Below, one piece after another: positions 16,575 to 47,192 of a DNA stretch of 55,901 nt. This DNA is from a virus. How positions within the stretch are numbered: the stretch's first letter is position 1; each line of letters starts with the position of its first letter. The notes beneath the pieces are model-generated. The model saw only the letters and a program-made list of their open reading frames with translations, made no database searches and had not been told where the DNA came from. Position numbers and translations under genes: made by a program. Location of the stretch: IMG/VR virus record IMGVR_UViG_3300045988_171564. The stretch is one strand, 5' to 3'.

Positions 16575-16606
16575 GAGCGGACGCGACATGCGCCCGCTTT
16601 TTTTAT
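16575..16606 (+). terminator. Rho-independent terminator
   Basis: GAGCGGACGCG..GCGCCCGCT stem followed by TTTTTTT. Confidence 0.6.
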
Positions 16607-16745: not shown

Positions 16746-16755
16746 CGTGAGAGAC

Positions 16756-17514
16756 ATGAGAACCATCGTAATAGCAAATCAGAAGGGCGGCGTGGGCAAA
16801 ACCACGACCGCACACGCGATGATCGCAGGGCTTGCCAAGCGCGGCTTCAGCGTGCTGGGCATTGACCTTGACCCACAAGGCAATTTATCGTCCGCGTGCG
16901 GCGCGGATCAGTACGACGGGCCCACGACGTATGAAGTGTTGACCGGCAAGGCAAGTGTATCCAGCGCGATTCAAGAATTGGGCAAACCGCGCTATAAGCT
17001 CTTAGCGGCCAATATAATGCTTGCAAGTGCCGAACAGGAACTAACACAGGTGGGCAAGGAATATCGCCTTAGAGAGGCGCTGACGGGCTTACAGGGCATT
17101 GATTACGTGATAGTTGATACGCCGCCGTCGCTGGGCATACTGACCGTCAACGCCTTTACCGCCGCGAACTGCGTAATCATACCCACTACGGCGGGCGTGT
17201 TCGCCGCAACCGGCATAGACCAGCTCAACATTACCATTGGCAACGTGCGCAAGTATTGCAACCCCGGACTGTATATCGCGGGCATACTGTTTACCCGATA
17301 CAACGCGCGCACGAACGTTGGTCGTCAGATAAGGACGCTGACAGAGCAGCTAGGCGAGCGCATATCCGCGCCGACTTACCACACCTGCATCCGTTCGGCG
17401 GTAGCGGTGGAAGAAGCGCAAATCAGCCGGGAGGATATATTTACCTATGCGGCAAGTTCGACCGTCGCCGCCGACTATAACGACTTTCTGAAGGAGTTCT
17501 TGGAAAATGGCTAA
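16756..17514 (+). CDS. parA: ParA/Soj-family partition ATPase
   Basis: Deviant Walker A in IANQKGGVGKTTTAHA, and DYVIVDTPPSLG. The upstream part of the 16588 ORF is repeat DNA, so ATG 16756 is taken as the start. Confidence 0.85.
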   Translation: MRTIVIANQKGGVGKTTTAHAMIAGLAKRGFSVLGIDLDPQGNLSSACGADQYDGPTTYEVLTGKASVSSAIQELGKPRYKLLAANIMLASAEQELTQVGKEYRLREALTGLQGIDYVIVDTPPSLGILTVNAFTAANCVIIPTTAGVFAATGIDQLNITIGNVRKYCNPGLYIAGILFTRYNARTNVGRQIRTLTEQLGERISAPTYHTCIRSAVAVEEAQISREDIFTYAASSTVAADYNDFLKEFLENG

Positions 17515-17788
17515 AAAGGCATTTGATACGGACAGGCTGTATGGCAATTTTATGAGCGTCAAGGAACGGGATGAGCAGGAAGAGCCCGCACGCAAGAGCA
17601 GTGCAAAAAGGCGCGTATGCTTTGCCGTGCCCGCCGACGTGTACGCCGACGCGCAGAAGATAGCGCAGGTAAGGCTCACCAGTGTAAGTGAGATCGTGTC
17701 GAGACTGCTGACCGAATACGTTGCCCGGAATCGGGAAGCGCTTGCAGAGTACGACACCTTAAAGGCCAAAAGTCAAGAAAAGAGCTAA
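17507..17788 (+). CDS. ParG-like ribbon-helix-helix partition/centromere-binding protein
   Basis: Overlaps the parA stop. RRVCFAVPADVYADAQKIAQVRLTSVSEIVSRLL fits an RHH (beta-alpha-alpha) pattern, preceded by a basic flexible N-terminus. Confidence 0.6.
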   Translation: MAKKAFDTDRLYGNFMSVKERDEQEEPARKSSAKRRVCFAVPADVYADAQKIAQVRLTSVSEIVSRLLTEYVARNREALAEYDTLKAKSQEKS

Positions 17789-18497: not shown

Positions 18498-19274
18498 CTA
18501 TCCGAGTTTATTCACTCGTTTGTAGTGCGCCATAGTCGCCTGCAATCGGGAGGGCGCGTTGATTACGAACTCCACACTCTCTATGCTTCTGCCGCCATTT
18601 CTGCGTGGCTCATAGTCTATGTGTATGTCATCGCATCGTTCGTTTATTTCCGAGATTGCGTCTCGTAATACCCTTCTGTCAAAGTCTGCCCAGCGTGGGT
18701 AATTTGCCACACATAGAACGTTTCTAAGCTCGTCGAGAGAGTATTTCACGATTTGAGTTTGATGGGTTTCAAGCTGCTTTTGGGTAACATGAGAACGCAA
18801 TATCTCGTAAAGCCTTATTGCGTATCTGTTTCCAAACACGAGCACGTTTTGCAATTTGTACTGCGTGTAGTTTTGCCTTAGGCCAAAAAGAAACGGCTCC
18901 ATATGCGGGTTGAATCTAATCTCAACTTTGGAACTGTTGTAATTTATCTTACAGTCGCCGATCCATGACATTGTTTGCTCCGTGCCATCTGGCATAGTGC
19001 ACCATTCGCGCCTTGTCAGTGCGTTGAGATTGTCTTTTAACGAGCGATAATAATATCCGCCATCTTCGTAAGCGAATCCACAAGCCCTGCAAAACTCATC
19101 AAGGTTGATTGTGTATACGGTGTTGGAAGTATCGTCGGGTTTTATCTTGGATATGGCAAACAAAACGATTTTCTGCTGCTGGGTTGTGAGACTATATCGC
19201 GAACGTCTTATAAGCTCGTTGGCTTTTACAACATATTGTTCTCTGTCCATAACCGTTTTTTTGCTGCTTGCCAT
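18498..19274 (-). CDS. rep: Rep_3/RepB-type plasmid replication initiator
   Basis: N-term VVKANELIRRSRYSLTTQQQKIVLFAISKIKPDD is typical of iteron-binding Rep_3 initiators. Iterons lie upstream. Confidence 0.8.
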   Translation of the reverse strand: MASSKKTVMDREQYVVKANELIRRSRYSLTTQQQKIVLFAISKIKPDDTSNTVYTINLDEFCRACGFAYEDGGYYYRSLKDNLNALTRREWCTMPDGTEQTMSWIGDCKINYNSSKVEIRFNPHMEPFLFGLRQNYTQYKLQNVLVFGNRYAIRLYEILRSHVTQKQLETHQTQIVKYSLDELRNVLCVANYPRWADFDRRVLRDAISEINERCDDIHIDYEPRRNGGRSIESVEFVINAPSRLQATMAHYKRVNKLG

Positions 19275-35878: not shown

Positions 35879-36454
35879 ATGCCGTCAAAAGTCGGGGAAA
35901 AGTCGCGGCAAATCTTAGCCCAGCGCGGGCGCGACCGCAAGCAGGCCCAGCGCACGCAAGCGTTGGAAGACAGCCCAAATCGCATACTTATCAGCGCTGC
36001 AATGGCCGTATACTCAATGCCTCCGCTCAATCTCAATGACCCAATGGCGGTAGCGGAGCGCGTGCAATGGTACTTTGACCAATGCTCCAACAACGGCATA
36101 CCGCCGGGCGTGGCTGGGCTGGCTAACGCGCTGGGCGTAACGCGCGCGACTATCTTTGCGTGGGCAAACGGCGAGACGCGCAGTGACGATAAGCGGTACA
36201 TGTATACGGCGCGGCGCGCGCTAAGTCTGCTTGAAGCGGTTTGGGAATCCAACATGCAAACCGGCATGATTGATTCGGGCGTGGGCAAGCTCATCGGGCA
36301 AAATAACTTTGGTTATGTGACGGGCAACGTCGAAGCGCCGTCCCATCGCGTGGCCTCCGCGCCAGAGCTGCAAAGCGTGGAAGTAATCGAAGCAAAGTAT
36401 CTGCCCGAATCGACCGGCGAAAAAGCAAGCGACGAAAAGAGCGAGGGCAATTAA
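35879..36454 (+). CDS. terS: Terminase small subunit
   Basis: ERVQWYFDQCSNNGIPPGVAGLANALGVTRATIFAWANG is the typical TerS HTH region. It is separated from terL by 9 kb. Confidence 0.65.
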   Translation: MPSKVGEKSRQILAQRGRDRKQAQRTQALEDSPNRILISAAMAVYSMPPLNLNDPMAVAERVQWYFDQCSNNGIPPGVAGLANALGVTRATIFAWANGETRSDDKRYMYTARRALSLLEAVWESNMQTGMIDSGVGKLIGQNNFGYVTGNVEAPSHRVASAPELQSVEVIEAKYLPESTGEKASDEKSEGN

Positions 36455-36470
36455 CCCTCGCTCTTCTTTG
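36439..36470. terminator. Bidirectional hairpin between convergent terS and the minus-strand operon
   Basis: GAGCGAGGG-caattaa-CCCTCGCTC. The loop contains the terS stop codon. Confidence 0.6.
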
Positions 36471-36471
36471 C

Positions 36472-37536
36472 TCATTTAACAGGCCGTATAGTAGGCACTA
36501 TTTCGCCCTTATCGCCATTTATCAGCATGGGCGGCAGCCACTTGACTACTATCTTGCGGTCAACGGATTCTTTCGCGCCCGTCCAAAACGAATGATAGTG
36601 CCCGCGCCGTATATGCGCGATGGGCGAGGCGTGCTTCCTATGTTCAGGCTGCTGCTCCGCTTCGTCGTTAATCTCTTTCACCTTTTGGCGGTCAAGGCGT
36701 ATAGCCGCCCCTATGCGCGTGCCGACGTTAGTGATATTCGTCCGGCGCGGCGGGCGCTCGGGCGTATAGGTGGTGTACGTGGGCTTTGCCTTTACACTGC
36801 GTGGCCGATTGTCATAGTCGGGTTCGTCGGTGCAGAGGTAGAGCAGCAGGTTGATAATCTTGCGGAAAATGTTTTCAGATTCGCCATAGCCGACTACACC
36901 GTTAAGGACCTTGCTCAATAACTCGGGGTTGCGCCCAAACGCATTGTGCGTGTCAGTCAAATATTGCAAAGCCGAGGCGCATCTTAATCCCTTGACTGCT
37001 TCTTCAATTGTGCCCTCAAGTGGACACACATCCGCATCGATACGGTTGCCGTCGGCGTCGAGGGCGATTACCGTCAGCTCTTTTTGCCGATTGTGGGAGT
37101 TCCACTTGATCCACGCAAAAAACCCATCGGCAGGAATTGGCGCATCAAAGATTATGCTGCGCGCGTGAAGCTGGACATATACGCACGGGACGGGGAAGCG
37201 TAAAAGCACGTCGCCGGGTATCTCGCCGGGGAAGTCCTGCTCAATAAGCTCTTTTTCAAGGATTTCGTCAAAAGCAAAAATCTGCTTTGACTTACGCCAC
37301 AAATATGCGGCCTCAACATTCAGAATATCGGCTGCATATTCGAGCATATTTATAGTGGTAAGACCGTACTGCTTGCAGACGGCGGCGTACCCCGCGCCGG
37401 TAGGCAGCGCCGCCCAGTCAGGCCAAGCGCCTTCTGCCTTTGCTTCCTCGCGTATAGCGGGCAGCGAATCCAGCTTATCAAATGCGCGCATCATTTCGCG
37501 CTCGATTTTCTTTGTAAAGATTTCAGGCGCCAGCAT
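36472..37536 (-). CDS. Hypothetical 354-aa protein (last gene of the minus-strand module)
   Basis: Long clean ORF. C-terminal AHIRRGHYHSFWTG..KWLPPMLIN motif. No family recognised by eye. Confidence 0.6.
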   Translation of the reverse strand: MLAPEIFTKKIEREMMRAFDKLDSLPAIREEAKAEGAWPDWAALPTGAGYAAVCKQYGLTTINMLEYAADILNVEAAYLWRKSKQIFAFDEILEKELIEQDFPGEIPGDVLLRFPVPCVYVQLHARSIIFDAPIPADGFFAWIKWNSHNRQKELTVIALDADGNRIDADVCPLEGTIEEAVKGLRCASALQYLTDTHNAFGRNPELLSKVLNGVVGYGESENIFRKIINLLLYLCTDEPDYDNRPRSVKAKPTYTTYTPERPPRRTNITNVGTRIGAAIRLDRQKVKEINDEAEQQPEHRKHASPIAHIRRGHYHSFWTGAKESVDRKIVVKWLPPMLINGDKGEIVPTIRPVK

Positions 37537-37537
37537 C

Positions 37538-37795
37538 TCACCGCCCCCTAAAGATTACTTTCCAAAATCCAACGAAGTTCCGAAACTCCAGCCACACAAC
37601 GGATCGGATAAGCCGCCCGTGCATAACGTGCGGATTCTCTGCGCTTAAAGCGTCGCGGATTATCATCTCAAATTCTGGCGATACGTTTTCACTAGCAGCC
37701 AATATCCGGGCTTTAGCTGCTTCAATCGCGGCGTCGTTTTCTTCTGGGGTCGCCTGCTTTGCCTCTTTGTATCTTTTATATAGCTTTAACATCAT
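37538..37795 (-). CDS. Hypothetical 85-aa protein
   Basis: ATG 37795 follows AAAGGGG. Preceded by the internal promoter. Confidence 0.5.
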   Translation of the reverse strand: MMLKLYKRYKEAKQATPEENDAAIEAAKARILAASENVSPEFEMIIRDALSAENPHVMHGRLIRSVVWLEFRNFVGFWKVIFRGR

Positions 37796-37880
37796 GTTAC
37801 CCCTTTCTAAAAAAATGTGGAAAAAGGAATACTTTTGAAGTCTTGACTTTGCTGGCAAGGAAATGTACTAGAACAATGCC

Positions 37881-37909
37881 ATTATATCAAAAAGCGTTCC
37901 TTTTTGCAA
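37881..37909 (-). promoter_or_regulatory. Internal promoter of the minus-strand module
   Basis: Minus strand reads TTGCAA (37909-37904), 17-nt spacer, TATAAT (37886-37881). Confidence 0.6.
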
Positions 37910-37947
37910 AGAAAATGCCGCTCATACGAGCGACACTAAACTATTGC

Positions 37948-37999
37948 GGGGTTATGGCGAAACGAAACGATTGGGGGTTATGGCGAAACGGAACGACTG
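37948..37999. repeat. 26-bp tandem duplication spanning the 3' end of gene 37952..38353
   Basis: GGGGTTATGGCGAAACGAAACGATTG followed by GGGGTTATGGCGAAACGGAACGACTG, with 2 mismatches. Confidence 0.9.
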
Positions 38000-38353
38000 A
38001 GGCTTATAATCATTGGCATCGCGATCGTAGTGCCACAGCGTCAGATCAACGCCGTAACATGCGCAAGCGTACATGACGGCCGTCGTGCATGGCGTTAGCC
38101 CCGTCACAACAACGTTCAGCGGTTCGCCGACAACTATTGTAGTGTCATCCCAGCCGTTAATGGCGCTGCCGATCGCATTGCGCGGACTACAATGCTCGTA
38201 CACATATTTGTCCGCGATGTGGAGCAGCCTCGCGAAATCGAGAACGTTCTCGATTTCACCATAAATGTATTCATCCACCGGTAGTGGATGCCGTCCGGCG
38301 CACAAACCAACCACGCGCTTCCCGGACGCTATAACATCATTCAAAGTTTGCAT
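37952..38353 (-). CDS. Hypothetical 133-aa protein
   Basis: Alternating beta/alpha pattern (VVGLCAGRH ... LNVVVTGLTPCTTAVMYACACYG). No family recognised. Confidence 0.55.
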   Translation of the reverse strand: MQTLNDVIASGKRVVGLCAGRHPLPVDEYIYGEIENVLDFARLLHIADKYVYEHCSPRNAIGSAINGWDDTTIVVGEPLNVVVTGLTPCTTAVMYACACYGVDLTLWHYDRDANDYKPQSFRFAITPNRFVSP

Positions 38354-38398
38354 ATCGTCTTTCCTCCATGCCCGGCGCTTTTTTGCGCCCGCGGCTAT

Positions 38399-39238
38399 TT
38401 ATCTCTTGGCCAACATTCTTTTCAGCACTCTCAACCATTGCGGCTTATCCAAGTCGCGTAAATCCTCGCCGCGCCGGAGCGTGCCGCCAACGCGCACATA
38501 TTCGCGTTCCGGTCGGGAACGGCTTGACCTGCCCGCAATCAGCCATTCGACCGCCGCTTGAATTTCTTCCGGCGGTATGCGCGGAACCGTATACCGCGTG
38601 ATGCCGTCCGGATTACGATAGATGCAGCTACCGTAACGCGGCAGGTTTTCCGCGCCCGCAACGCCGATTATGTTGCGGCTGTCCTGCGCGGTCGGGCACC
38701 TGAGCGCAACGCGCGCGTCAATGTTGACAGCGATTTGCCCGTTGATTAAATCGCGCGTCGGGCGCTGGGTTGCGGCGATTACGTGTACGTTCGCCGCGCG
38801 CCCAAGCTGGGTAAGCCGCGCAAGCAGCGGTGTTACCTCCTTTTTGCTGGTAGTCATGAGGTCGGCCAGCTCATCGATAATGACGTATACAGCCGGTTCC
38901 CCGTAAAACTTACGTTCAGCGGGGTTCGAGCGCTCCATCATTATCCTGTAGCGATTATCCATCAGCCTGACCACGCTTTCCAACGTGCGGATAATGTCGT
39001 CCGGCTCCGTTGCGTGCATTGCCGTCTGAGGCAAGCACGCATAGTCAATCAACTCGACCCGCTTGGGGTCGATGAGGTATAGGTTGGGCGCCTTGTGCTC
39101 ATGAAGCGCGCCGAGCAGGTGGTAAATCAGGTTATGCAGCAACACCGATTTGCCCGAGCCGGTTGCGCCTGCTATAAGAAGATGAGGTTGATTAACCATG
39201 TCCATGAAAGGCTTATACCTTGTAAATGACCGCTCCAT
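38399..39238 (-). CDS. FtsK/SpoIIIE-family ATPase (motor domain only, no TM segment)
   Basis: Walker A LLIAGATGSGKSVLL. Walker B VYVIIDELADLM. VHVIAATQRP and ARVALRC motifs. Confidence 0.8.
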   Translation of the reverse strand: MERSFTRYKPFMDMVNQPHLLIAGATGSGKSVLLHNLIYHLLGALHEHKAPNLYLIDPKRVELIDYACLPQTAMHATEPDDIIRTLESVVRLMDNRYRIMMERSNPAERKFYGEPAVYVIIDELADLMTTSKKEVTPLLARLTQLGRAANVHVIAATQRPTRDLINGQIAVNIDARVALRCPTAQDSRNIIGVAGAENLPRYGSCIYRNPDGITRYTVPRIPPEEIQAAVEWLIAGRSSRSRPEREYVRVGGTLRRGEDLRDLDKPQWLRVLKRMLAKR

Positions 39239-39286
39239 ATGTTACGCGCGCGTATAGGCGCGATTCACCTCCTTGGATGCCCTAAT

Positions 39287-39976
39287 TTATTCGTAAATTT
39301 CGTCAAAATCGCAAACTTCGTCATCGCCGCCGACGTCGGCATTGCCATAGACTTTAGCACCATTGTAGACCTCGGCGCAACCGTTCACCTCGGCACTGCC
39401 GTAAACTTCGGCACAACCATGTATCGAGGCATTATCATAAATCTCCGCGTCATCGTAAATCTCAGCATCGTCGGAGACTTCTGCTTCTCCGTGCACTTGA
39501 GCGTTGCCATAAACATTGGCGCCGCCGTAGACCTCGGCACTGTCGTACACGCGGGCGTTGTCGTATACCTTAGGCCAATCATATATTCTGGCGTGGCCGT
39601 AAACTTTCGCGGCGCCGTATACATCACCGCCGTGTACATTGGCATCGCCGTATACCTCGGCATTGCCGTAAACGTGGGTGGTTTCGACGTAGGCATTGCC
39701 GTACACGCGGGCATTGTCATAAATGTGGCCGTCCATAATGCAAGCGTTTCCGCCGACTTTGGCATCGTCACATACTATGGTGCCGCCGTAAATTTTAGCA
39801 TCATCGTATACCCAAGCGCTGCCGTCGTCGCTTATATCACCGTCGTACTCGACCCAGCCGCCCACGTCGCCCGCGTGAACGTCACCGAAATCGCGCAGCG
39901 CCTTAACGCGGTATACCGTATATATCTCGTCTACTATCATGGACTCTTCTTTGACCAGCTCATACTTCTTTCCCAT
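39287..39976 (-). CDS. Beta-helix-type hexad-repeat protein, paralog A
   Basis: N-term YELV..YRVKALRDFGDVHAGDVGGWVE, then about 25 six-residue units (xVYGxA: AEVYGD ANVHGG...). The start is set at MGKKYELV by analogy with paralog B. Confidence 0.7.
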   Translation of the reverse strand: MGKKYELVKEESMIVDEIYTVYRVKALRDFGDVHAGDVGGWVEYDGDISDDGSAWVYDDAKIYGGTIVCDDAKVGGNACIMDGHIYDNARVYGNAYVETTHVYGNAEVYGDANVHGGDVYGAAKVYGHARIYDWPKVYDNARVYDSAEVYGGANVYGNAQVHGEAEVSDDAEIYDDAEIYDNASIHGCAEVYGSAEVNGCAEVYNGAKVYGNADVGGDDEVCDFDEIYE

Positions 39977-40046
39977 TTTGTCCTCCATGCGTATATATTA
40001 GCCGGGCTTGTGACCGGCTCGCCGCATTATCGGCCCGTTTGGGCCG

Positions 40047-41015
40047 TCACTCTGCGTAAAGCCTATCCAGCTTTTCACAAAGCGCCTCATGCTGCTGCCA
40101 AGTAATCTTACCGGCCAGCAGCGCGTTACCGATTTTGCCGCCCATATAGCGGCGCTTACGCTCGCTGACGCTGTACCCGCTCCAGCGCGCGGCCCACTTG
40201 ACAGCCGCGCGGCTGCCATCTACCACGTCCCAAAGATTGAGACGCGTTGCGGCCGTGAAAGCGCGTGCGACGGCCATATTGCAGCGCCACATCTCTGCGG
40301 TGTCGCCGTCGCCGTCAACCTCGTCTAAGGCGACGTCGAACGTGCGGCCAGTCGCCGCGATTGTAACCGTGACGCTCCAGCGCGCGCCAAAGTCGCCGCA
40401 GTTCATGTCATCACAGCCGACAATCAAATCGCCGACTGTGGACGTCGCCCACACTGCGCCGCCTGCGGGATTAAAGTACCCGCCGCCGTTATGCGCGTAA
40501 TCAGGGTTAGCAAAATCATTAGTCTCTTCGCCCCAGCAGTTTATTAGCAGGGGCTTCAGTCCGTGCTTTACAGGCTTGTTGATGCTCTTAATTTTCATGT
40601 TATTCTCCTCCACTTTTCTGTTCATTTCGCCGCTTGCTGTTATGCGACGACGGCGCCCCGTCGCACGCGCAAAAAACGTGCGGGTCTCCAAATCGCAAAT
40701 CACATTTTCAGCGTCGTTCAAAAACGTGATGTGCGGGTATATTACGCGGCGGTATCCCATCGCCACAATCAGACCGCGCGGGCCTAACCACTGTACGTCA
40801 TCGTACAGTTTGGTTTGCACGGCCTCTTCACGCTCCATAACGTCGCGAGCCTTGCGGCATTCTGCCGCGCACGCAAACGCATACTTGCGCTTGCGTGTGC
40901 GCTGATACATGTTGTAATACGCCTGCGCGGTTACTACCGCGCGGCGGATTACGAGTACGTCGCGTTCGTACATGGCGCGTACTTCCTGAGCAACCTTTTT
41001 AATGTTCTTATCCAT
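40047..41015 (-). CDS. Hypothetical protein (322 aa; an internal SD plus ATG at 40597 could give a shorter product)
   Basis: ATG 41015 follows GGAGGG. GGAGGAG precedes the internal MKIKSINK. No motif recognised. Confidence 0.5.
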   Translation of the reverse strand: MDKNIKKVAQEVRAMYERDVLVIRRAVVTAQAYYNMYQRTRKRKYAFACAAECRKARDVMEREEAVQTKLYDDVQWLGPRGLIVAMGYRRVIYPHITFLNDAENVICDLETRTFFARATGRRRRITASGEMNRKVEENNMKIKSINKPVKHGLKPLLINCWGEETNDFANPDYAHNGGGYFNPAGGAVWATSTVGDLIVGCDDMNCGDFGARWSVTVTIAATGRTFDVALDEVDGDGDTAEMWRCNMAVARAFTAATRLNLWDVVDGSRAAVKWAARWSGYSVSERKRRYMGGKIGNALLAGKITWQQHEALCEKLDRLYAE

Positions 41016-41049
41016 TTTTCCCTCCAATTACTCCAATGTTCGGCATTTA

Positions 41050-41280
41050 TTACTCTTGTTCAAAAGCCTTTGACGCCCAAACACCTTTATGGGCGTCCGC
41101 ACGCCGAGGGTTACTCGGCTCGCCGTCTGCGTCTACCGCGTACAAGCGTACGCAGTAGTACTTGTCGCGCCCAGCCTCAAAGCCTGCGCGCGCCGCGTCC
41201 ATGCCCAGCTCGTCAACGTCGCGCTCCACGTCGTCGCGTGCCAAATCCTTTATGCTGTCCATGGCCGCCCGCCATGCCAT
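41050..41280 (-). CDS. Hypothetical 76-aa protein
   Basis: ORF only. Confidence 0.45.
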   Translation of the reverse strand: MAWRAAMDSIKDLARDDVERDVDELGMDAARAGFEAGRDKYYCVRLYAVDADGEPSNPRRADAHKGVWASKAFEQE

Positions 41281-41313
41281 ACCCGCCTCGACATTCGATT
41301 ACCACTTTGTAGT

Positions 41314-41958
41314 TCACGGCTGTTCTCCTTGCGCGTGCTCAGCGATGTTCGCGCTGCCGTATACTTCAGCGAACTCATGCACCTCGGCGTTGCCGTATAC
41401 GCGGGCGTTGCCGTATACGGCCGCGCACCCGTGTATAGTGGCGTTGCCGTAAACCTCAGCACCGTCGTATACGCAGGCGCTGCCGTATACGCGGGCACCG
41501 TCGTATACGCAGGCGTTGCCTTCCACCTCGGTGTATTCATGCACCTCGGCGTTGCCGTAAACCTCAGCATTGCCGTATACGCAGGCGCTGCCGTATACGC
41601 GGGCACCGTCGTATACGCAGGCGTTGCCGTATACTTCAGCGAACTCATGCACCTCGGCGTTGCCGTAAACCTCAGCATCGCCGTATACGCAGGCGTTGCC
41701 GTATACGCGGGCGCTGCCGTATACGCAAGCACCGTCGTATACGCGGGCGTTGCCGTATACGCAAGCACCGTCGTATACGCGGGCGTTGCCGTATACCCAG
41801 GCGCTGCCGTCCTGGCTAAGGCAGGTATCATCTTCAATCCACCCGCCCACGTCGCCCGCGTGAACGTCGCCAAAATCACGCAAGGCCTTGACTCTGTAAA
41901 AAGTATGGCCGATGGTATGCGCGTTGTTCGCATCGACCAACTCATATTTTCTTGGCAT
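41314..41958 (-). CDS. Beta-helix-type hexad-repeat protein, paralog B
   Basis: MPRKYELV..FYRVKALRDFGDVHAGDVGGWIE, then about 27 hexads (ARVYDG ACVYGN ...). The DNA shows an 18-bp periodicity. Confidence 0.7.
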   Translation of the reverse strand: MPRKYELVDANNAHTIGHTFYRVKALRDFGDVHAGDVGGWIEDDTCLSQDGSAWVYGNARVYDGACVYGNARVYDGACVYGSARVYGNACVYGDAEVYGNAEVHEFAEVYGNACVYDGARVYGSACVYGNAEVYGNAEVHEYTEVEGNACVYDGARVYGSACVYDGAEVYGNATIHGCAAVYGNARVYGNAEVHEFAEVYGSANIAEHAQGEQP

Positions 41959-41983
41959 AAATGATATACCTCCATGCGGTAAT

Positions 41984-42060
41984 TCGGTTTCCCGTGACGC
42001 GGCGGCGTATTGCCGCCGCGTTTCGGCCTGTTACCGGCAGGCCATCATCAGACGGGCCAA
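41984..42060 (-). ncRNA. Hammerhead ribozyme (type I topology), copy 1
   Basis: Minus strand reads UUGGCCCGU-CUGAUGA-U-GGCCUG(CCGGUAA)CAGGCC-GAA-ACGCGGCGGC(AAUAC)GCCGCCGCGU-C|ACGGG-AAA-CCGA. The full conserved core and three stems are present. Confidence 0.8.
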
Positions 42061-42704
42061 GGGCGCAGACCCAGCGCATAAGCCGCGCCGGCTCCGCAGG
42101 CGGCAACGTCCAGCCTGCCGCAATCGCAGACCTCGGCACTGCTGTCCGCATCTTGCTGCTCCCACTCTAGCAGCTCGTCGCGGTTCAGGTCTACAAGCTC
42201 CCAGTCCTGCCACGCGTCCGCGTCCGCGTGGAGTTCCAGCAGCGCGTTTAGGAGCTGGCCCTCGGGCGATTGCTCCCAGCCCGCGACTACTGCGACTGGC
42301 GTGCCAGCACAGTCGCAGATGTACAGGCGGACAAACCCGCCGTTGTCCTCGTATACCCTATATCGGGTATCGGATGTAAGCATACCGGCGTCCTCAGCCA
42401 GCAGGGCAACCCTACCGGCGGCGGCGTCCATAAGCTCGTCAACGTAGTCGTAGTCGTCGGGGTCAAGTCCTGCCGCCTCGGCGATTTTGTCGTAGGCATC
42501 CGGCTCCAGGCAATCCCACGCGGGCGCGGCGTCTGCGACCCTGTAGAGGTCGTAGGCGCTGAGGCGTTCAAGCCCCTCAAAAGTTCCGTCGCGGTCATGC
42601 GTGTCGCGCGCTGTCTGATCCAGCGCGTCGCCGTCCTTTATGTGACGCCAGGTATCGGCGTCGATGGTAGCTAGCTTGGTAGAGTCGATGTAGTAGCTTG
42701 CCAT
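42048..42704 (-). CDS. Strongly acidic 218-aa protein (DNA-mimic / antirestriction candidate)
   Basis: Asp/Glu-rich throughout (DPDDYDYVDELMD, ELLEWEQQDADSS). Its stop codon UGA lies inside the hammerhead CUGAUGA core. Confidence 0.55.
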   Translation of the reverse strand: MASYYIDSTKLATIDADTWRHIKDGDALDQTARDTHDRDGTFEGLERLSAYDLYRVADAAPAWDCLEPDAYDKIAEAAGLDPDDYDYVDELMDAAAGRVALLAEDAGMLTSDTRYRVYEDNGGFVRLYICDCAGTPVAVVAGWEQSPEGQLLNALLELHADADAWQDWELVDLNRDELLEWEQQDADSSAEVCDCGRLDVAACGAGAAYALGLRPWPV

Positions 42705-42764
42705 TTTTTTGTACCTCCTTTTTTTCCCCTCTTAATTCATCCGCGCGCCGTATGGCGCGCTATG

Positions 42765-43274
42765 TTATACCGTGGCCATCGCGCCGCTGTGGGCGCTGTA
42801 CATCTGGCTACCATACTTAGCGCGTATGGTAGCCATGTCAACCTGACGACGGCTATATGCGCCGCCGTCGTCAGCCGCGTGCCAGTACCACGCCTTTTTA
42901 GTGCCGCTCCAGCGGCACCCCAGCGCTTTTAGTGCGGCGCGGTGCTGGTATGTGTCGCCGGTTATCCATAGCCAGCGGCCACACAATTCAATTTCCAGCC
43001 CCGCCAGTTTGAGCAGGGCCAGAAGCGTGTCTCGCCAGGCGGTCGCCTCATATGCGCTTGCGGCGGCGTCATACTCGCGCGCGCCCGAACTCGCCGCGCG
43101 GTGCTCTGTGCGCGCTATACGCGCGACGGCTTCATCGTAGGCGTTGTTGAGCGCCTTCATGGCGGCCTCACTGCCGCCGGGGCAGTCAGGATGACACTTG
43201 ACTGCCAAGCGGCGATATGCCTTTTTGAGGTCGTCCATCGTCTTGATGGGCGCGAATATTGCGTTAAAGTTCAT
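42765..43274 (-). CDS. J-domain (DnaJ-like) protein with an uncharacterised C-terminal domain
   Basis: LKKAYRRLAVKCHPDCPGGSEAAMKALNNAYDEA carries the HPD motif. C-term CGRWLWITGDTYQHRAALKALGCRWSGTKKAWYWH. Confidence 0.75.
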   Translation of the reverse strand: MNFNAIFAPIKTMDDLKKAYRRLAVKCHPDCPGGSEAAMKALNNAYDEAVARIARTEHRAASSGAREYDAAASAYEATAWRDTLLALLKLAGLEIELCGRWLWITGDTYQHRAALKALGCRWSGTKKAWYWHAADDGGAYSRRQVDMATIRAKYGSQMYSAHSGAMATV

Positions 43275-43293
43275 GCTCTTTATATACCCCTGT

Positions 43294-43378
43294 GATAATA
43301 TTCGGTTTCCCGTGACGCTCCGTGCTGGAGCGTTTCGGCGCGTGACCAGCGCGCCATCGTCAGACGGGCGATATAATC
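43294..43378 (-). ncRNA. Hammerhead ribozyme (type I topology), copy 2
   Basis: Minus strand reads ..UCGCCCGU-CUGACGA-U-GGCGCG(CUGGUCA)CGCGCC-GAA-ACGCUCC(AGCAC)GGAGCGU-C|ACGGG-AAA-CCGAAUAUUAUC. Stems II and III differ from copy 1 but remain paired. Confidence 0.8.
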
Positions 43379-43409
43379 AGCGCGTAAAAGCCATTTCGAC
43401 CGCCCCGCT

Positions 43410-43745
43410 CTAAGCAATTTTAATGCCGTGCAAGGCGCATGTGAGCATGATTTGCTCTTGCATTGCAAACCCGCAATGCAGATTCGGGCAGATGGACTCT
43501 ATTAAGTCCAACACGCCCGGCTCTTTTGACGGGTAGGCGCTCATGCGCAAACCGTCGGCGGCAAGTAACACTTGCTCAATCCCGGCCGCGTATGCCTTGA
43601 TTTTGGCCTCGTTGGCCTGCATCAATTCGTGCAGGCCGTTCGAACCGCAAACATTGTTGCTTGCAAAAGCTTCATCCACGACTGCCGCCTTTGCAATATA
43701 CTTCGACAGCCCTTTTATGGTTTTGAATTTTACTTTTGCTTTCAT
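43410..43745 (-). CDS. Hypothetical 111-aa protein (first gene of the minus-strand module)
   Basis: SD AGGAGGGAAAAG precedes ATG 43745. Confidence 0.55.
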   Translation of the reverse strand: MKAKVKFKTIKGLSKYIAKAAVVDEAFASNNVCGSNGLHELMQANEAKIKAYAAGIEQVLLAADGLRMSAYPSKEPGVLDLIESICPNLHCGFAMQEQIMLTCALHGIKIA

Positions 43746-43909
43746 CTTTTCCCTCCTCTTATATATATAGTAATTATTACTGAGGTATTCCTATAGTATT
43801 GTGGTGTGTATGGGAGAGCGGATTTTTATTGAGCGGGACAAAATTGACCCGGTTCTTTATCCGCCCGCGCCGCATGTCATATTTGCGGCGTTCCCCTGAC
43901 CACATGCTT

Positions 43910-43938
43910 ATTATACCACATTTGCATGATTATGTCAA
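43910..43938 (-). promoter_or_regulatory. Consensus sigma-70-type promoter of the minus-strand module
   Basis: Minus strand reads TTGACA (43938-43933), 17-nt spacer, TATAAT (43915-43910). The leader to ATG 43745 is about 155 nt. Confidence 0.7.
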
Positions 43939-43978
43939 GCGTTTCGGACGGTCTTTTTTCGCTTTTTGGCTACTTTTT

Positions 43979-44004
43979 TTGCACAAATGCGGGCTTTTGT
44001 GCAA
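43979..44004. promoter_or_regulatory. 9-bp inverted repeat, candidate operator between the divergent promoters
   Basis: TTGCACAAA-tgcgggct-TTTGTGCAA. Confidence 0.4.
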
Positions 44005-44063
44005 TGATACAACATGTTCAATTTGCTCATACATTTCATGATCAAGTTTATCACGCCCACGCG

Positions 44064-44321
44064 CCCCCCCCTCACCCGGTGCACTGTATGGCCTCTTGCG
44101 CCCTTGCACGTCCCTTGTACGTCCTTGTACGCCTTTACGCGCCTCTTAGCTGGCCGCGTCTTAGCCGCTTGCACCCGGCGAGGCGTGCGCCCCTTAGCTG
44201 GCCGCGTCGCTTGCCCTCAGTCGCTTTTATGCACGCGCCCCCCGGCGGCTATGCGTCTGACTGCCTGACTGCCCCCCGTGGGGATATGGCCAATTAGCTG
44301 TCCCCCCCCGGTTAGCCCCCC
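44064..44321. repeat. C-rich region with poly-C tracts and 16-bp direct repeats (candidate res / pac / structured DNA)
   Basis: C8 at 44064-44071 and 44302-44309. C6 runs at 44238, 44272 and 44316. CTTAGCTGGCCGCGTC at 44145-44160 and 44193-44208. CCTTGTACG occurs twice. Confidence 0.6.
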
Positions 44322-44340
44322 GACCACATTCAAAAAAATA

Positions 44341-44369
44341 TTGACATTACCACACACACATGATATAAT
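44341..44369 (+). promoter_or_regulatory. Consensus promoter for the HTH and recombinase genes
   Basis: TTGACA (44341-44346), 17-nt spacer, TATAAT (44364-44369). Confidence 0.7.
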
Positions 44370-44386
44370 GTATATGAGGTGAGACG

Positions 44387-44728
44387 ATGGCTACGAAATC
44401 TAAAAACGAGATGCAGACTTTAAGCTCGAAAGATGCTATAAGGGCATTGTGTTCTTTGCGAAAATGGACGCAAGCTGATCTTGCTTATGAAATGGGATAT
44501 GCGAGCCAAGCAGGCGTTGGACAGATGCTTAGTGATAGACAGAACTCCAAAAAAGGTATGTCGCTATCGACGTATGAAAAGGCTCTTGAAGCCCTAGGCG
44601 CTGAATTGATAGTCCGTGACAAGATGGGCAGCGGGAAGGAGTGGAAGATAGATGATTTACTTTTACGCGAGAGTGTCGACGGTGGAGCAAAATCTAGCAA
44701 GGCAGATAGAAGCAGCGAAGAAGTATAA
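44387..44728 (+). CDS. XRE-like HTH regulator
   Basis: LRKWTQADLAYEMGYASQAGVGQMLS HTH. Overlaps the recombinase start by 77 nt. Confidence 0.6.
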   Translation: MATKSKNEMQTLSSKDAIRALCSLRKWTQADLAYEMGYASQAGVGQMLSDRQNSKKGMSLSTYEKALEALGAELIVRDKMGSGKEWKIDDLLLRESVDGGAKSSKADRSSEEV

Positions 44729-45254
44729 AGGCGTTGACGAAATCTTTTCCGACAAGATGAGCGGAAAGAACTTTAACAGAGTAGAGTATCAGCGCATGAA
44801 GTCGATGCTTCAGAAGGGCGACGAAGTAGTTGTGAAATCGCTTGACCGTCTGGGCAGAGATAAGAACCTTGTGAAAGATGAAATCCAGTGGTTCAAAGAG
44901 CATGGTGTGAAACTGAGGATACTGGACATACCGACGACGCTCATTGAGATGGACGGTCAGGAATGGGTAGGCGATATGGTAACGAACATACTGATCGAGG
45001 TCATGGCGAGCGTTGCGGAGCAGGAGCGCATGATGATAAGAGAGCGTCAGCGCGAGGGGATAGAAGCCAAGCGTAAATCGGGGACATGGGACGAATACGG
45101 GCGGCCAAAGAAGAATACGGACGGGATAGAAGATTACTGGCTGGCGTATAAGTCAGGCGAAATGACGCGGGAGGATTGCTGTAAGGCGTTGGGCATATCT
45201 TCAAGGACACTGTATAATCGCGCAAAGGAACTTAACTTGATGATGGCGAACTAA
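44652..45254 (+). CDS. Small serine recombinase (resolvase/invertase family)
   Basis: MIYFYARVSTVEQNLARQ (catalytic Ser motif), VVKSLDRLGRD, and a C-terminal HTH EDCCKALGISSRTLYNRAKE. 200 aa. Confidence 0.85.
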   Translation: MIYFYARVSTVEQNLARQIEAAKKYKGVDEIFSDKMSGKNFNRVEYQRMKSMLQKGDEVVVKSLDRLGRDKNLVKDEIQWFKEHGVKLRILDIPTTLIEMDGQEWVGDMVTNILIEVMASVAEQERMMIRERQREGIEAKRKSGTWDEYGRPKKNTDGIEDYWLAYKSGEMTREDCCKALGISSRTLYNRAKELNLMMAN

Positions 45255-45269
45255 GACGATTTGGAGGGA

Positions 45270-45419
45270 ATGGATATGTTTTACGTGCTGTTCAAGATAC
45301 TGTTTTGGCCGTTCTGGTTTCCGATTGCGGTCATCCGCTGGCTGTTTGAGTTCATGTTCATGCCGCCGGGGCATAGAAGAAACCGTGTTGACATGTACCA
45401 TCATTTTCGCAGGTGGTAA
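45270..45419 (+). CDS. Possible 49-aa membrane peptide
   Basis: GGAGGG SD. MDMFYVLFKILFWPFWFPIAVIRWLFEFMFMPPGH. Confidence 0.4.
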   Translation: MDMFYVLFKILFWPFWFPIAVIRWLFEFMFMPPGHRRNRVDMYHHFRRW

Positions 45420-45455: not shown

Positions 45456-45511
45456 AAGAGCCGATTGGGGCTTTGCTTTTATAAGCATTGCTTTGATCGG
45501 CTCTTTTTTTG
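45456..45511 (+). terminator. Rho-independent terminator
   Basis: AAGAGCCGAT...ATCGGCTCTT followed by TTTTTT. A second hairpin TCTGCA..TGCAGA lies just upstream. Confidence 0.65.
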
Positions 45512-45533: not shown

Positions 45534-47192
45534 ATGGACTATGAGCGACTTGTGAGCCGCATATTTGACGTAATCCAGGAAAAGCCGCTGGATGCGGGCG
45601 CATATGAGGACGTGCTGAATGTCTGCAAGGATATGAAAAAAAACGGCCTTTTAGGAAGGGCGCACGAGATTAATACCCAGATGCGCAATATCATTGTGCG
45701 CAACACAATCGGCGCAAAAAATGAGCTGTTTAAGCCGTATAAATCGAGCCTGCTGTTTGATGCTGACGTATCGCTGGACGCATACATGCTGTACCTTGAG
45801 ATAGAGCGCCCGCCTGCCGAAAGGTTTTATCAGCCGCGCCGCCGCGTACTGCTGGACGCGGTGCAGATGATGCAGGATTTGGCCGACGGCAAGTTGAACG
45901 AGGCGTTTATAAGCTGTCCGCCGCGAGTTGGCAAGACTACGCTGCTTATGTTCTTGACCACATGGTTGTTGGGGCGCAACAGTGAACAGGCTAATTTGTA
46001 TTCGGCCTACTCGGACGTTATCACGAATGCGTTTTATCAAGGCGTGCTGGAGATAATCACTGACCCGCATACATACCTTTGGAGCGACGTATTCCCGAAC
46101 AGTAAGATTGTGCAGACCAACGCCTCAAGCGAGACGATAAACCTTGACCGTAAAAAGCGTTACCCGTCGCTGACCTGCCGGTCACTGTACGGCACGCTGA
46201 ACGGCGCGTGCGATTGCAGCGGCTTTCTGATTTCGGACGACCTTATAGGCGGCATCGAGGAGGCCTTGAGCCACGACCGCATGATGAGTGCGTGGCTCAA
46301 GGTGGACAATAACCTGATAACCCGCGCAAAGAGCGATGCGCGCATACTCTGGTGCGGTACAAGATGGTCGATGATTGACCCAGCAGGGCTAAGGATGGAG
46401 CTGCTGACCAACGATAAGCGTTTCAAAAAGCGCAAGTACAAAATAATCAACATGCCCGCGCTTGATGACAAGGGCAACAGCAACTTCAATTACGACTACA
46501 ACGTCGGGTTCAGCACGGAGTACTACATGCAAAGGCGCGCGTCGTTCGAGCGAAACGGCGATATAGCGTCGTGGAACGCCCAGTACATGGGACAGCCGGT
46601 AGAACGCGACGGCACGCTGTTCGAGCCTGAAAACATGCGCTTTTTCAACGGCTCTTTGCCTGGCGGCGACCCTGACCGCGCATTTATGGCCGTTGACCCG
46701 GCATACGGCGGTTCCGACTTTGTAGCAAGCCCGGTATGCTACCAGTACGGCGAAGACGTATACGTTGTTGACGTGGTTTATAGTTCCAGCGATAAGCGGA
46801 CTACACAGCCACTGCTTGCAGCCGTAGCCCAGAAATACGGCATACAGCGAATGCAAATCGAAGCCAATAAGACCACGGAGGCGTTCAAGGACGGCGTTGA
46901 GGAAGAACTCAAAAAGCGCGGCTATCACGTTACGCTGACCACCAAACCCGCGCCGCCCATCACATCGAAGGAAAACCGCATACGAGATCGCGCGCCGGAT
47001 ATACGCATTCACTTTCTGTTTCTGGAAGATGGACAGCGTTCAAAGGCATATAGTTTGTTTATGCAAAACGTGTATTCGTTTAAGCTTATAGGCAAGAACA
47101 AACACGACGACGCGCCCGATTCGCTGGCAATGGCCGCAGACATGGCGTTTGGCATACAGCGGCGCGTCGCAATATTCCGGCGCATGTTCTGA
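45534..47192 (+). CDS. terL: Terminase large subunit
   Basis: Walker A-like ISCPPRVGKTTLLMF. ATPase plus nuclease-sized 552-aa ORF directly upstream of the portal gene. Confidence 0.8.
   Translation: MDYERLVSRIFDVIQEKPLDAGAYEDVLNVCKDMKKNGLLGRAHEINTQMRNIIVRNTIGAKNELFKPYKSSLLFDADVSLDAYMLYLEIERPPAERFYQPRRRVLLDAVQMMQDLADGKLNEAFISCPPRVGKTTLLMFLTTWLLGRNSEQANLYSAYSDVITNAFYQGVLEIITDPHTYLWSDVFPNSKIVQTNASSETINLDRKKRYPSLTCRSLYGTLNGACDCSGFLISDDLIGGIEEALSHDRMMSAWLKVDNNLITRAKSDARILWCGTRWSMIDPAGLRMELLTNDKRFKKRKYKIINMPALDDKGNSNFNYDYNVGFSTEYYMQRRASFERNGDIASWNAQYMGQPVERDGTLFEPENMRFFNGSLPGGDPDRAFMAVDPAYGGSDFVASPVCYQYGEDVYVVDVVYSSSDKRTTQPLLAAVAQKYGIQRMQIEANKTTEAFKDGVEEELKKRGYHVTLTTKPAPPITSKENRIRDRAPDIRIHFLFLEDGQRSKAYSLFMQNVYSFKLIGKNKHDDAPDSLAMAADMAFGIQRRVAIFRRMF

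Follow-up and report, generated by a model that had tools for sequence, protein, structure and literature searches.

Results

Eleven antisense genes between the terminase genes

The window analyzed here is a viral genome of 55,901 nucleotides (nt) (IMG/VR record IMGVR_UViG_3300045988_171564), and the subject of this study is a block of eleven minus-strand open reading frames (ORFs; 36472-43938) located between its terminase genes, terS and terL, which we named g1 to g11 in the order of transcription. The terS gene (35879-36454) was assigned by the GP3_package family (PF16677, 34.6 bits against a cut-off of 29.4), and terL (45534-47192) by phrog_38 (2.7e-59), with the portal gene next to it. 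In the window and its close relatives, the terS flank of the block reads MazG-terS and the terL flank reads helix-turn-helix (HTH) gene-recombinase-p52-terL-portal, in which p52 is an ORF of 52 amino acids (aa). The G+C content across the block is patchy, 0.49-0.62, and a megablast search of the block region against the GenBank phages gave no match. The features of the block are listed below in the order of transcription; L numbers denote the loci used for comparison, and R1 is a hammerhead covariance model.

43910-43938, minus strand: P1, sigma-70-type promoter for g1-g9, TTGACA-17-TGgTATAAT, 12/12 matches plus TG extension; kept in L002
43410-43745, minus strand: g1, ORF of 111 aa, first gene after P1; 83% identical in L002, absent from L003 and L001
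43301-43371, minus strand: HH1, type I hammerhead ribozyme, core CUGAcGA / GAAA / GUC; 84.8 bits with model R1; covariation
42765-43274, minus strand: g2, 169 aa, J-domain protein with HPD motif and a Trp-rich C-terminal domain resembling DUF5710; PF00226, phrog_15863
42048-42704, minus strand: g3, ORF of 218 aa, isoelectric point (pI) 4.05, net charge -33; stop codon inside the HH2 core
41983-42059, minus strand: HH2, type I hammerhead ribozyme; 78.8 bits with model R1, 79% identical to HH1 (repeat families D6/D7)
41314-41958, minus strand: g4, 214 aa, acidic YdcK-type beta-solenoid, pI 4.52; PF18836 2.5e-19, phrog_7964, phrog_5070
41050-41280, minus strand: g5, ORF of 76 aa
40047-41015, minus strand: g6, 322 aa, two domains, likely true start 41015; 94% identical in L003, absent from L002 and L001
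40002-40056, minus strand: twister-P5 ribozyme; RF02684, 60.4 bits against a gathering score of 37.6, model positions 1-58 of 58
39287-39988, minus strand: g7, acidic YdcK-type beta-solenoid paralogue of g4, pI 4.14; PF18836 2.9e-11; likely ATG at 39976, giving 229 aa
38399-39238, minus strand: g8, 279-aa FtsK/SpoIIIE-like ATPase, beta (RecA) domain only; PF01580 7.5e-33
37952-38353, minus strand: g9, ORF of 133 aa; 87-90% identical in L002-L004
37914-37937, minus strand: terminator-like hairpin closing the P1 unit; -18.7 kcal/mol, z = -5.2
37881-37909, minus strand: P2, internal promoter for g10-g11, TTGCAA-17-TATAAT, TG extended, 10/12 matches; kept in L002
37538-37795, minus strand: g10, 85 aa, likely start 37795, stop overlapping the g11 start region; kept with g11 in L001-L004
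36472-37536, minus strand: g11, 354 aa, AcrVA2/FinQ family; PF26125 in homologues, PDB 7ci1
about 36433-36466, both strands: bidirectional terminator hairpin common to the convergent g11 and terS; -27.2 kcal/mol (minus) and -24.4 kcal/mol (plus) for 36425-36480, z about -6

Much of this anatomy had been described in a first-pass annotation, made by a model from the sequence alone, and was borne out: the eleven oppositely oriented ORFs, the consensus promoter at 43938-43910 and the internal one at 37909-37881, the terminal bidirectional hairpin, the HPD-bearing J-domain protein with its W-rich C-terminus, the very acidic 218-aa protein, the two beta-helix hexad-repeat paralogs (here YdcK beta-solenoids), the motor-only FtsK/SpoIIIE ATPase, and the repeat-rich spacer with an HTH and serine-recombinase pair beyond P1. 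Since the hairpin at 37937-37914 precedes P2, the block splits into at least two transcription units, with P1 serving g1-g9 and P2 serving g10-g11.

Hammerhead and twister ribozymes within the block

HH1 and HH2 both read CCCGU-CUGAnGA-U-stem II-GAAAC-stem III-GUC-ACGGG. The Rfam hammerhead models did not match the window at E<=5 over 10 kb or at E<=10 over a 1.5-kb slice, so that the two hammerheads reported by the first-pass annotation had to be judged by their homologues. Scanning viral contigs with a pattern in which the core, the two outermost pairs of stem II and the 3' strand of stem I were the only fixed positions gave 17 loci, and model R1 was built from 20 homologues. Both window copies and each of the 20 aligned homologues have the full core (C3 U4 G5 A6 N7 G8 A9, G12 A13 A14, A15.1-U16.1, H17). 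Of the cells in this alignment of 20 sequences, 99.5% are paired, and seven pairs vary on both sides with 45 compensatory cells, all of them in the inner stem II and stem III positions that the pattern had left free. None of 500 shuffles scored as high, and sliding the partners by 1-3 columns reduced the pairing to 26-42%. Stem I is open and invariant across the alignment. Because the core is intact and compensatory covariation is found in the homologues, we regard HH1 and HH2 as genuine type I hammerheads on comparative grounds, with predicted self-cleavage. From the chemistry of the family, HH1 is predicted to cleave after C43314, 39 nt 5' of the g2 ATG, and HH2 after C41996, 37 nt 5' of the g4 ATG.

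In this hammerhead subtype, one additional U (C in L003) separates A9 from the first pair of stem II, and this extra pyrimidine is probably why the Rfam models are blind to HH1 and HH2. Work on A10 of the CChMVd viroid is said to have found that an extra base after A9 is tolerated in a viroid hammerhead. The GGU in loop II and the ACC in the 3' tail could pair as a pseudoknot, although both are invariant and offer no covariation to judge by; pseudoknot contacts are known for many hammerheads (PMC3088659). The R1 model found no copies in the 55.9-kb genome beyond HH1 and HH2. In other viral contigs, a recurring set of genes is found directly 3' of this subtype, encoding ArdC-N-like proteins (weak Pfam matches, below the cut-off), further J-domain/DUF5710-like proteins, an FtsK-like protein, a DUF2201 metallopeptidase-VWA protein, and uncharacterised proteins.

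The ribozyme inventory of the first-pass annotation, correct for the two hammerheads, was incomplete: it had overlooked the twister-P5 at 40002-40056(-), the only Rfam ribozyme in the whole window. Its cleavage is predicted, from family chemistry, between U40029 and A40028, and the copies in L001-L003 score 61.9-67.1 bits. The Rfam and R1 scans thus place all three ribozymes found in the 55.9-kb genome inside the 7.5-kb block. Two of the three overlap the upstream stop codon: the stop codon of g3 is U4-G5-A6 of the HH2 core, and that of g6 lies within the 5' part of the twister. A leader, CUAAUAUAUACGCAUGGAGG-N(4-7)-AUG, follows twister-P5, and the twister and leader together precede three unrelated ORFs in L001-L003; CGCAUGGAGGUAUAUCAU is common to the HH2 leader and the L002 twister leader. 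We also observed a promoter-like TTGCGT-17-TATAAT directly 5' of the twister in L001 (3090-3139), where the ribozyme would strip the 5'-triphosphate end from the primary transcript, not cut between cistrons.

Sister lineages carry other ribozyme classes in the corresponding antisense unit. A P3-less twister-P1 lies just 5' of the FtsK-like start in four loci at 52-59 bits (E 1e-9 to 1e-11), below the Rfam gathering score of 67.2, and the motif was seen by pattern in five more loci. Pistol ribozymes above the Rfam threshold lie between small genes of the unit in three loci.

L138 4887-4938, L184 190-241, L145 1577-1627 and L144 2811-2861, inside the antisense FtsK unit: P3-less twister-P1 sites
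L171 6878-6944, L181 7052-7118 and L152 7396-7466, between small genes of the antisense FtsK unit: pistol ribozymes

Cassette exchange among close relatives, with breakpoints at the ribozymes

The close relatives L001-L003 keep the slot between the terminase genes and its neighbours, and their terL genes, where present, are about 97% identical. The contents of the slot differ as follows.

L002, first part: g1, g3, hammerhead, g2, a 147-aa gene, twister, a 124-aa gene, a 321-aa YdcK protein, a 64-aa gene
L002, second part: FtsK-like gene, an 86-aa gene, g9, P2, g10, g11
L003: without g1 and without a solenoid; g6, twister, a 64-aa gene, then the FtsK-like gene
L001: upstream cargo replaced by a GNAT acetyltransferase and other genes

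Absent from L002 are g5 and g6, in whose place other genes stand; g1, g4, g5 and g7 are absent from L003, and g1-g6 and g9 are absent from L001. Among these relatives the serine recombinase is 99-100% identical amid changing neighbours. In distant relatives, all that is kept is the FtsK-like gene, accompanied by one to three unrelated small genes. The first-pass annotation had taken the eleven genes for a self-contained system and had looked to related phages for conserved linkage; the genes proved to be largely swapped, reordered or replaced, the cargo differs even among close relatives, and only the FtsK-like gene is kept.

Alignment of the window with these relatives placed the ends of homology at the ribozymes. 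Window positions 45600-43359 align to L002 2232-4462, and this homology, running from terL through g1, ends at the 5' edge of HH1. HH1 with g2 aligns to L002 5160-5787 and g3 with HH2 to L002 4501-5229; because these two blocks align separately, the order hammerhead-g2-g3-hammerhead in the window is a permutation of g3-hammerhead-g2 in L002. The 79-nt twister with its leader is 92% identical between the window and L002, with unrelated genes on both sides. The homology to L003 spans g6 and the twister and ends at the start codon, and that to L001 begins at the first base of the twister. Beyond the close relatives, a hammerhead is the sole DNA in common between L017 and L024, and likewise between L021 and L029, all otherwise unrelated contigs, and a block common to L029 and L031 is bounded by two hammerheads. 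The location of the ribozymes at cassette junctions is therefore well supported by the sequence comparisons.

An FtsK-like ATPase fixed in the antisense slot

The product of g8 aligns to residues 162-422 of E. coli FtsK (2IUS). Its N-terminus begins about 11 residues before the aligned Walker A region, and its basic C-terminal tail of about 40 aa matches nothing. The relatives of g8 are 242-279 aa long and show no variation in the Walker A, Walker B and TQRP motifs (alignment A1). In the 2IUS alignment and in Pfam, the FtsK alpha domain, the gamma domain, which reads KOPS/SRS (FtsK- and SpoIIIE-recognized DNA motifs), and the N-terminal membrane anchor are all absent from g8. It cannot be taken for granted that g8 pumps DNA in the manner of FtsK.

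Scanning the family alignment against viral contigs yielded 79 further loci, obtained from 80 of the 352 IMG/VR matches. The terS gene converges directly 3' of the FtsK-like gene in 64 of the 65 loci with enough flanking sequence, with a median gap of 359 nt, and terL lies upstream of it in 42 of 45. Between terL and the FtsK unit there is a serine recombinase in 36/57 loci, an HTH gene alone in 19/57, and neither in 4/57. The FtsK-like proteins are 48-60% identical across the clade, and their identity tracks that of terL (Spearman 0.52, p = 5e-5). The slot persists where terL is only 31-33% identical, in a prophage within a 279-kb Lachnospiraceae contig and in a Ruminiclostridium contig; related loci come from Oscillospiraceae, Lachnospiraceae and Ruminiclostridium assemblies. 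In loci with FtsK-like homologues of about 55% identity, one strand carries portal, terL, cargo (ParE or an Mrr-type nuclease) and an adjoining serine recombinase, and the opposite strand carries one to three small genes with the FtsK-like gene, terS converging. The small genes 5' of the FtsK-like gene in the distant phages had no Pfam or PHROG match. A scan of GTDB genomes with the FtsK alignment returned mostly cellular FtsK motors and about four relevant loci. In Clostridium phage Maintenon, the closest cultured phage (terL 44% identical), the terS-terL gap holds small ORFs and tRNAs and no FtsK-like gene.

The FtsK-like gene is thus the only gene of the block that is conserved across the 79 distant loci. 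The synteny in about 80 loci, the persistence at 31-33% terL identity and the co-divergence with terL make it well supported, as far as comparative sequence evidence goes, that a large phage clade inherited an antisense FtsK unit in the terS-terL gap from its ancestor; the view of the first-pass annotation, that the block splits two normally adjacent genes, does not hold for this clade. In the lineage of the window, cargo added at either side has expanded the slot from about 1-2.5 kb to 7.5 kb. An antisense FtsK-like unit that occupies the terminase gap throughout a clade seems to be undescribed so far.

As a side observation, there is a second small cargo position beside terL, in the gap between the recombinase or HTH gene and terL, which holds an Mrr_cat-type nuclease or a ParE toxin in L012, L014, L034, L116 and others.

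Promoters and the divergent control region

Upstream of P1 lie the following features.

43939-44340, no strand: G+C-rich spacer of about 400 nt with repeats, flanked by two perfect promoters that diverge; repeat family D11, with further short repeats seen by eye
44341-44369, plus strand: second perfect promoter (12/12 consensus match), pointing away from P1
44387-45254, plus strand: divergent unit, HTH protein (44387-44728) overlapping a small serine recombinase (44652-45254); phrog_1373, phrog_125, PF00239 3.4e-31

From the second promoter, the order is HTH gene, small serine recombinase, the conserved 52-aa ORF and then terL. The spacer, next to the HTH-recombinase unit and with repeats recognized by eye, is a candidate control or recombination site. 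The layout of divergent promoters with a G+C-rich spacer and operator-like repeats recurs in distant members of the FtsK clade.

By eye, we noticed that the 17-nt spacers of both promoters, 43916-43932(-) and 44347-44363(+), contain TCATG-N5-TGTGG in the minus-strand reading (TCATGCAAATGTGG and TCATGTGTGTGTGG); this motif is a possible shared operator of the two divergent promoters. In distant relatives, both promoters carry TTACGATAA/TTATCGTAA repeats instead, again by eye. Two G+C-rich hairpins resemble each other, GCGCGCC-AUAC-GGCGCGC after g2 (42743-42760) and CGCGCC-UAUAC-GCGCG before g8 (39247-39265), and both are kept in L002. The hairpin before g8 is what remains of the 3' end of a 64-aa ORF; in L002, translation of this ORF is coupled to that of the FtsK-like gene.

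Proteins encoded by the cargo genes

The 354-aa g11 product, which the first-pass annotation had considered motif-less, belongs to the AcrVA2/FinQ family, and its HIRRGH motif is a conserved functional site. A Pfam-A scan of g11 itself returned no family, though near-identical relatives carry precomputed PF26125, which is found in 78 of 78 g11 homologues, one of them named an AcrVA2-family anti-CRISPR; P0002, 79% identical to g11, is listed as AcrVA2-like. Against the AcrVA2 structure (PDB 7ci1), g11 matched with E = 2.8e-12 in two collinear segments, in which lWRK..FDE and HIRRGHYH of g11 pair with AWRN..LDE and HIRRGHWH. At the positions of W79, D89, H286, R288 and H291, g11 has kept the residues of AcrVA2, and mutation of these five impairs AcrVA2 (bioRxiv 10.1101/2022.11.29.518452). 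AcrVA2 recognises the nascent Cas12a protein, leading to destruction of the Cas12a mRNA, and its relatives, including the plasmid fertility inhibitor FinQ, occur mostly in hosts without Cas12a (same source); other targets are therefore expected for them. Distant AcrVA2-like genes stand alone beside integrase or repressor (lysogeny) genes in unrelated phages. By its sequence g11 is a new AcrVA2/FinQ-family member in a phage-plasmid.

The J domain of g2 (sequence KCHPDC) scored 28.8 bits with PF00226 against a cut-off of 27.8 and matches PDB J domains; the protein also matched phrog_15863 (8.9e-44) and, weakly, the DUF5710-like PF18974. The solenoids g4 and g7 scored 97-101 bits with the YdcK model NF040481, far below its cut-off of 350, so that they have the repeat and the N-terminal region in common with YdcK and are not YdcK equivalogs. 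The likely start of g7 was chosen because a Shine-Dalgarno GGAGG overlaps the first ATG. The acidic g3 protein consists of two domains, each of which occurs elsewhere on its own in a protein of about 100 aa; exhaustive searching with HMMER brought up only 25 relatives, all without Pfam domains. The only 10 homologues found for g6 are either proteins of about 180 aa corresponding to its C-terminal domain or 221-aa proteins corresponding to its N-terminal domain. These distributions indicate that g3 and g6 are probably fusions of domains that occur separately as small proteins. Searches with tblastn of g3 and g6 against phages gave no match, and single-sequence AlphaFold2 models of g3 and g9 had mean confidence (pLDDT) of 40.6 and 38.1, respectively, both unusable. 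We also note a 26-nt tandem duplication in perfect register (92% identical, 37948-37999) at the 3' end of g9, which makes the g9 C-terminus longer than in L002.

PADLOC, run over the block, found no multi-component system; g8 alone matched generic FtsK-domain models (SspH, mad8, HerA).

The genome appears to be a phage-plasmid

The first 27 nt of the 55.9-kb window are identical to its last, indicating a complete, circular assembly. It encodes an iteron-type Rep_3 initiator (Rep3_N and Rep3_C; 18498-19274(-)) and a ParA-type ATPase (16588-17514), together with CI/Cro-type regulators and an antirepressor, beside the terminase, portal and other phage proteins. No integrase was found among the ORFs scanned, which were a subset of those in the window. 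Because ParA and Rep_3 coexist with phage genes on a circular assembly, and no integrase was among the scanned ORFs, the genome appears from its gene content to be a phage-plasmid of gut Clostridia, that is, a plasmid-type prophage, not an integrating one.

Several further observations concern the surroundings. The region 17507-17788 is grouped with the ParA and Rep_3 genes. The p52 ORF (45261-45419(+)), between the recombinase and terL, is Trp/Phe-rich and hydrophobic and is 92-96% identical in L002 and L003. Between it and terL, a gut-2 RNA-like motif (RF02990; 45431-45478(+)) scored 36.1 bits, below the gathering score of 39.8; it overlaps a terminator-like hairpin (inverted repeat 45456-45505) and may be an attenuator before the late packaging genes. 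In the lysis/accessory region, a 332-aa ORF (14342-15340(+)) weakly matches the DNA-binding domain of I-TevI (PF20987, 1.3e-4) and may be homing-endonuclease-like. In L010, a drum RNA (RF02958, 66.2 bits; 10081-10194(+)) lies beside terS, and this phage also has a tyrosine integrase and a ParE toxin.

Discussion

A variable island in an ancestral slot

Taking these comparisons together, we lean, with more belief than doubt, toward the reading that the block is a hypervariable accessory island, serving counter-defence or inter-element conflict, in an ancestral antisense terS-terL slot of gut Clostridia siphophages, and that its ribozymes mark cassette junctions and act as expression insulators. 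The conserved resident of the slot would be the RecA-domain-only FtsK-like ATPase, transcribed divergently from the serine recombinase/HTH unit across the repeat-bearing control region. Around it the slot would take up cassettes, in this lineage the J-domain protein, the acidic two-domain protein, the two YdcK solenoids, the 322-aa fusion, and the promoter-equipped pair of g10 and g11. Strong sigma-70-type promoters, controlled by the HTH protein and the recombinase, would probably drive the cargo early or in the carrier state, and the cargo would serve counter-defence or conflict with other mobile elements. If the ribozymes cleave in vivo, they would cut the polycistronic RNA at cistron junctions, giving the downstream gene a short 5'-OH leader with a strong ribosome-binding site, and would thereby insulate its expression from the upstream context. 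The same 55-80 nt of conserved ribozyme DNA could supply homology for the exchange of cassettes between elements.

This functional reading, which is inferred, agrees with four observations: clustered hammerheads are known to flank variable prophage genes, ribozyme classes share neighbourhoods, strong promoters stand beside an HTH gene, and the genome has a plasmid nature. The suggestion of the first-pass annotation that the block holds plasmid- or ICE-like (integrative and conjugative element) anti-defence cargo is sustained to the extent that the block is transcribed separately from the morphogenesis genes, that g11 has its family assignment, and that ParA and Rep_3 are present; a coherent novel system did not emerge.

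Several points weigh against this reading. Only one of the eleven proteins, g11, belongs to a family with demonstrated counter-defence activity, and that family lives mostly in Cas12a-less hosts; g1, g3, g5, g6, g9 and g10 matched no Pfam, PHROG, NCBIfam or PADLOC family. Ribozymes at the Rfam gathering score were found in one of eight sampled clade loci, and no R1-type hammerhead in the 79 loci of the FtsK clade; most clade loci being without a detectable ribozyme, the slot therefore works without ribozymes. A 5'-OH end can expose RNA to RNase J1 in Firmicutes, as for glmS, so that cleavage could lower expression. Finally, that the FtsK-like gene is so strictly conserved hints at a core role in the phage, which an accessory island leaves unexplained.

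The last point leads to the rival explanation to which we give limited but real credence: that the conserved core, namely the FtsK-like ATPase, the divergent serine recombinase and the repeat site, is a module for genome-end processing or maintenance on which the cargo hitch-hikes. If packaging is headful, such a module would sit in the terminal redundancy beside pac/terS, where the recombinase would circularise incoming DNA or resolve multimers of the plasmid-prophage, and the ATPase could translocate or align DNA and help to pull the genome in or to segregate it. Cre-lox near pac in phage P1 and res/tnpR of Tn3 are precedents. The strict placement of the FtsK-like gene relative to terS and terL and its co-divergence with terL, the invariance of its ATPase motifs, the divergent recombinase sharing the promoter region in 36 of the 57 loci, and the near-identity of the recombinase in close relatives amid varying neighbours all speak for it. 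A resolvase would also have a job in the window, because the genome is plasmid-like, with ParA and Rep_3, and no integrase was among the scanned ORFs. However, loci with the HTH gene alone or with neither gene imply that the ATPase does not need the recombinase, g8 is devoid of the FtsK alpha and gamma domains and membrane anchor, and we know of no serine recombinase that depends on FtsK. The spacer repeats, moreover, were seen only by eye, no recombination site or res-like subsite structure was recognized, and L010 has its own tyrosine integrase as well. The module would be compatible with the favoured reading of the cargo.

A broader proposal joins both ideas, and we put it forward only tentatively, as slightly less probable still than the module by itself. 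The DNA of hammerheads, twisters and pistols would be portable homology through which phages, plasmids and ICEs swap single-gene cassettes, and the RNA would give context-independent leaders; in addition, the FtsK-like ATPase and the recombinase would form an undescribed genome-end module in the terminal redundancy beside pac, for circularisation, internalisation or maintenance of the plasmid-prophage. If true, the cassette system would answer why unrelated ribozyme classes share gene neighbourhoods in bacteria.

It is improbable that the eleven genes form one multi-protein defence, transfer or establishment system acting together. They do lie on one strand with tight spacing behind one strong promoter, and J-domain/DUF5710-like, FtsK-like and ArdC-N-like genes recur beside the R1 hammerhead subtype, but their linkage is not kept in L001-L003, the 79 distant loci retain only the FtsK-like gene, AcrVA2-like genes occur alone in other phages, and the block consists of two transcription units that no defence-system model matches.

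Hardly more attractive, and if anything a little less so, is an excludon-like transcriptional lock, in which strong transcription of the antisense unit toward terS, together with competition between it and the divergent terL operon, would keep the packaging genes silent in the carrier state and the proteins would matter less. The unit runs antisense toward terS, from which only 51-500 nt separate it in most loci, the two perfect promoters stand back to back, and position and orientation are kept where most of the content is not. A strong bidirectional terminator nevertheless separates the unit from terS in the window, and the invariant catalytic motifs, with 48-60% identity, imply selection on the FtsK-like protein itself.

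An independent mobile element (a satellite, an integrative mobilisable element or a transposon) that inserted into the phage with its own recombinase is very improbable: some integrative mobilisable elements do combine a recombinase with an FtsK-like gene, as is the case here, and the strand and patchy G+C content would fit, but no repeats flank the block, the Pfam, PHROG and NCBIfam scans found no relaxase, replication or capsid-redirecting gene in it, and in about 80 phage lineages the unit keeps its synteny and has diverged along with terL and portal. An invertible segment, with an invertase-type recombinase beside an inverted block, was ruled out, there being no inverted repeats around the block or the promoter.

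Under the favoured reading of a variable island with ribozymes at its cassette junctions, the locus and its roughly 80 relatives provide a comparable setting, in which a fixed antisense unit is found in lineages without a ribozyme and in others with hammerhead, twister-P5, twister-P1 or pistol. This family of loci makes the clustering of ribozymes near certain phage-like genes, noted for more than ten years, testable with respect to insulation, mRNA fate and recombination. It also brings to light an FtsK-like ATPase, abundant and unstudied, whose gene holds a fixed place between terS and terL in phages of gut Clostridia, and one hammerhead subtype that is invisible to current Rfam models.

Comparison with known systems

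The closest precedent is the clustered hammerheads that flank single genes or short blocks, including ardA and variable genes in prophages, for which processing of transcripts into gene-length mRNAs has been suggested (Perreault et al. 2011, PMC3088659). As in those clusters, several self-cleaving ribozymes are predicted here within a few kb on one strand, between cistrons that vary among relatives, and anti-restriction-type genes are nearby (ardA there, a weak ArdC-N-like match 3' of this subtype here). Unlike them, the present block occupies a clade-conserved antisense terS-terL slot, mixes classes (type I hammerhead and twister-P5, with twister-P1 and pistol in sister lineages), and has breakpoints that coincide with the ribozymes, and its hammerhead subtype has the extra pyrimidine after A9 and escapes Rfam. 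Twister, hammerhead, pistol, hatchet and twister-sister ribozymes are known to have common gene neighbourhoods, the reason for which is undetermined (PMC6765202; PMC8782182). The block resembles these in that different classes occupy equivalent positions beside the same families in phage-like DNA and the class appears interchangeable, hammerhead and twister having the same downstream leader here; it differs in adding synteny and breakpoint evidence.

With AcrVA2/FinQ (PF26125; 7CI1), g11 shares a sequence match, the five key residues, and carriage on a mobile element, as for most members. Its identity to AcrVA2 is low, however, and the N-terminal, target-recognition part diverges; g11 also differs in being paired with an 85-aa protein in a unit of two genes that has a promoter of its own. 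Like acr-aca operons, anti-defence islands and plasmid leading regions, the block combines a very strong promoter beside an HTH gene, small fast-changing genes, a member of an Acr family, and acidic, possibly DNA-mimicking proteins, whereas its HTH gene is divergent and not downstream, a conserved ATPase anchors it, and its cassettes are delimited by ribozymes. The g8 protein has the RecA-type motor fold of the FtsK/SpoIIIE translocases and phrog_1358, with invariant Walker A, Walker B and TQRP motifs; unlike the translocases, its family is without the alpha and gamma domains and the anchor, is 242-279 aa long, and is fixed between terS and terL.

Two analogies may be drawn beyond these homologies. 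In the synthetic RiboJ insulator, self-cleavage removes variable upstream RNA, so that the downstream gene is expressed whatever its context, and in integrons, conserved junctions bound exchangeable single-gene cassettes. The block differs in being natural, not engineered, and its genes would be exchanged through homologous recombination at ribozyme DNA instead of by integrase action at attC. Prophage operons punctuated by ribozymes are known, as are accessory and anti-defence islands, and the block is a variant of these.

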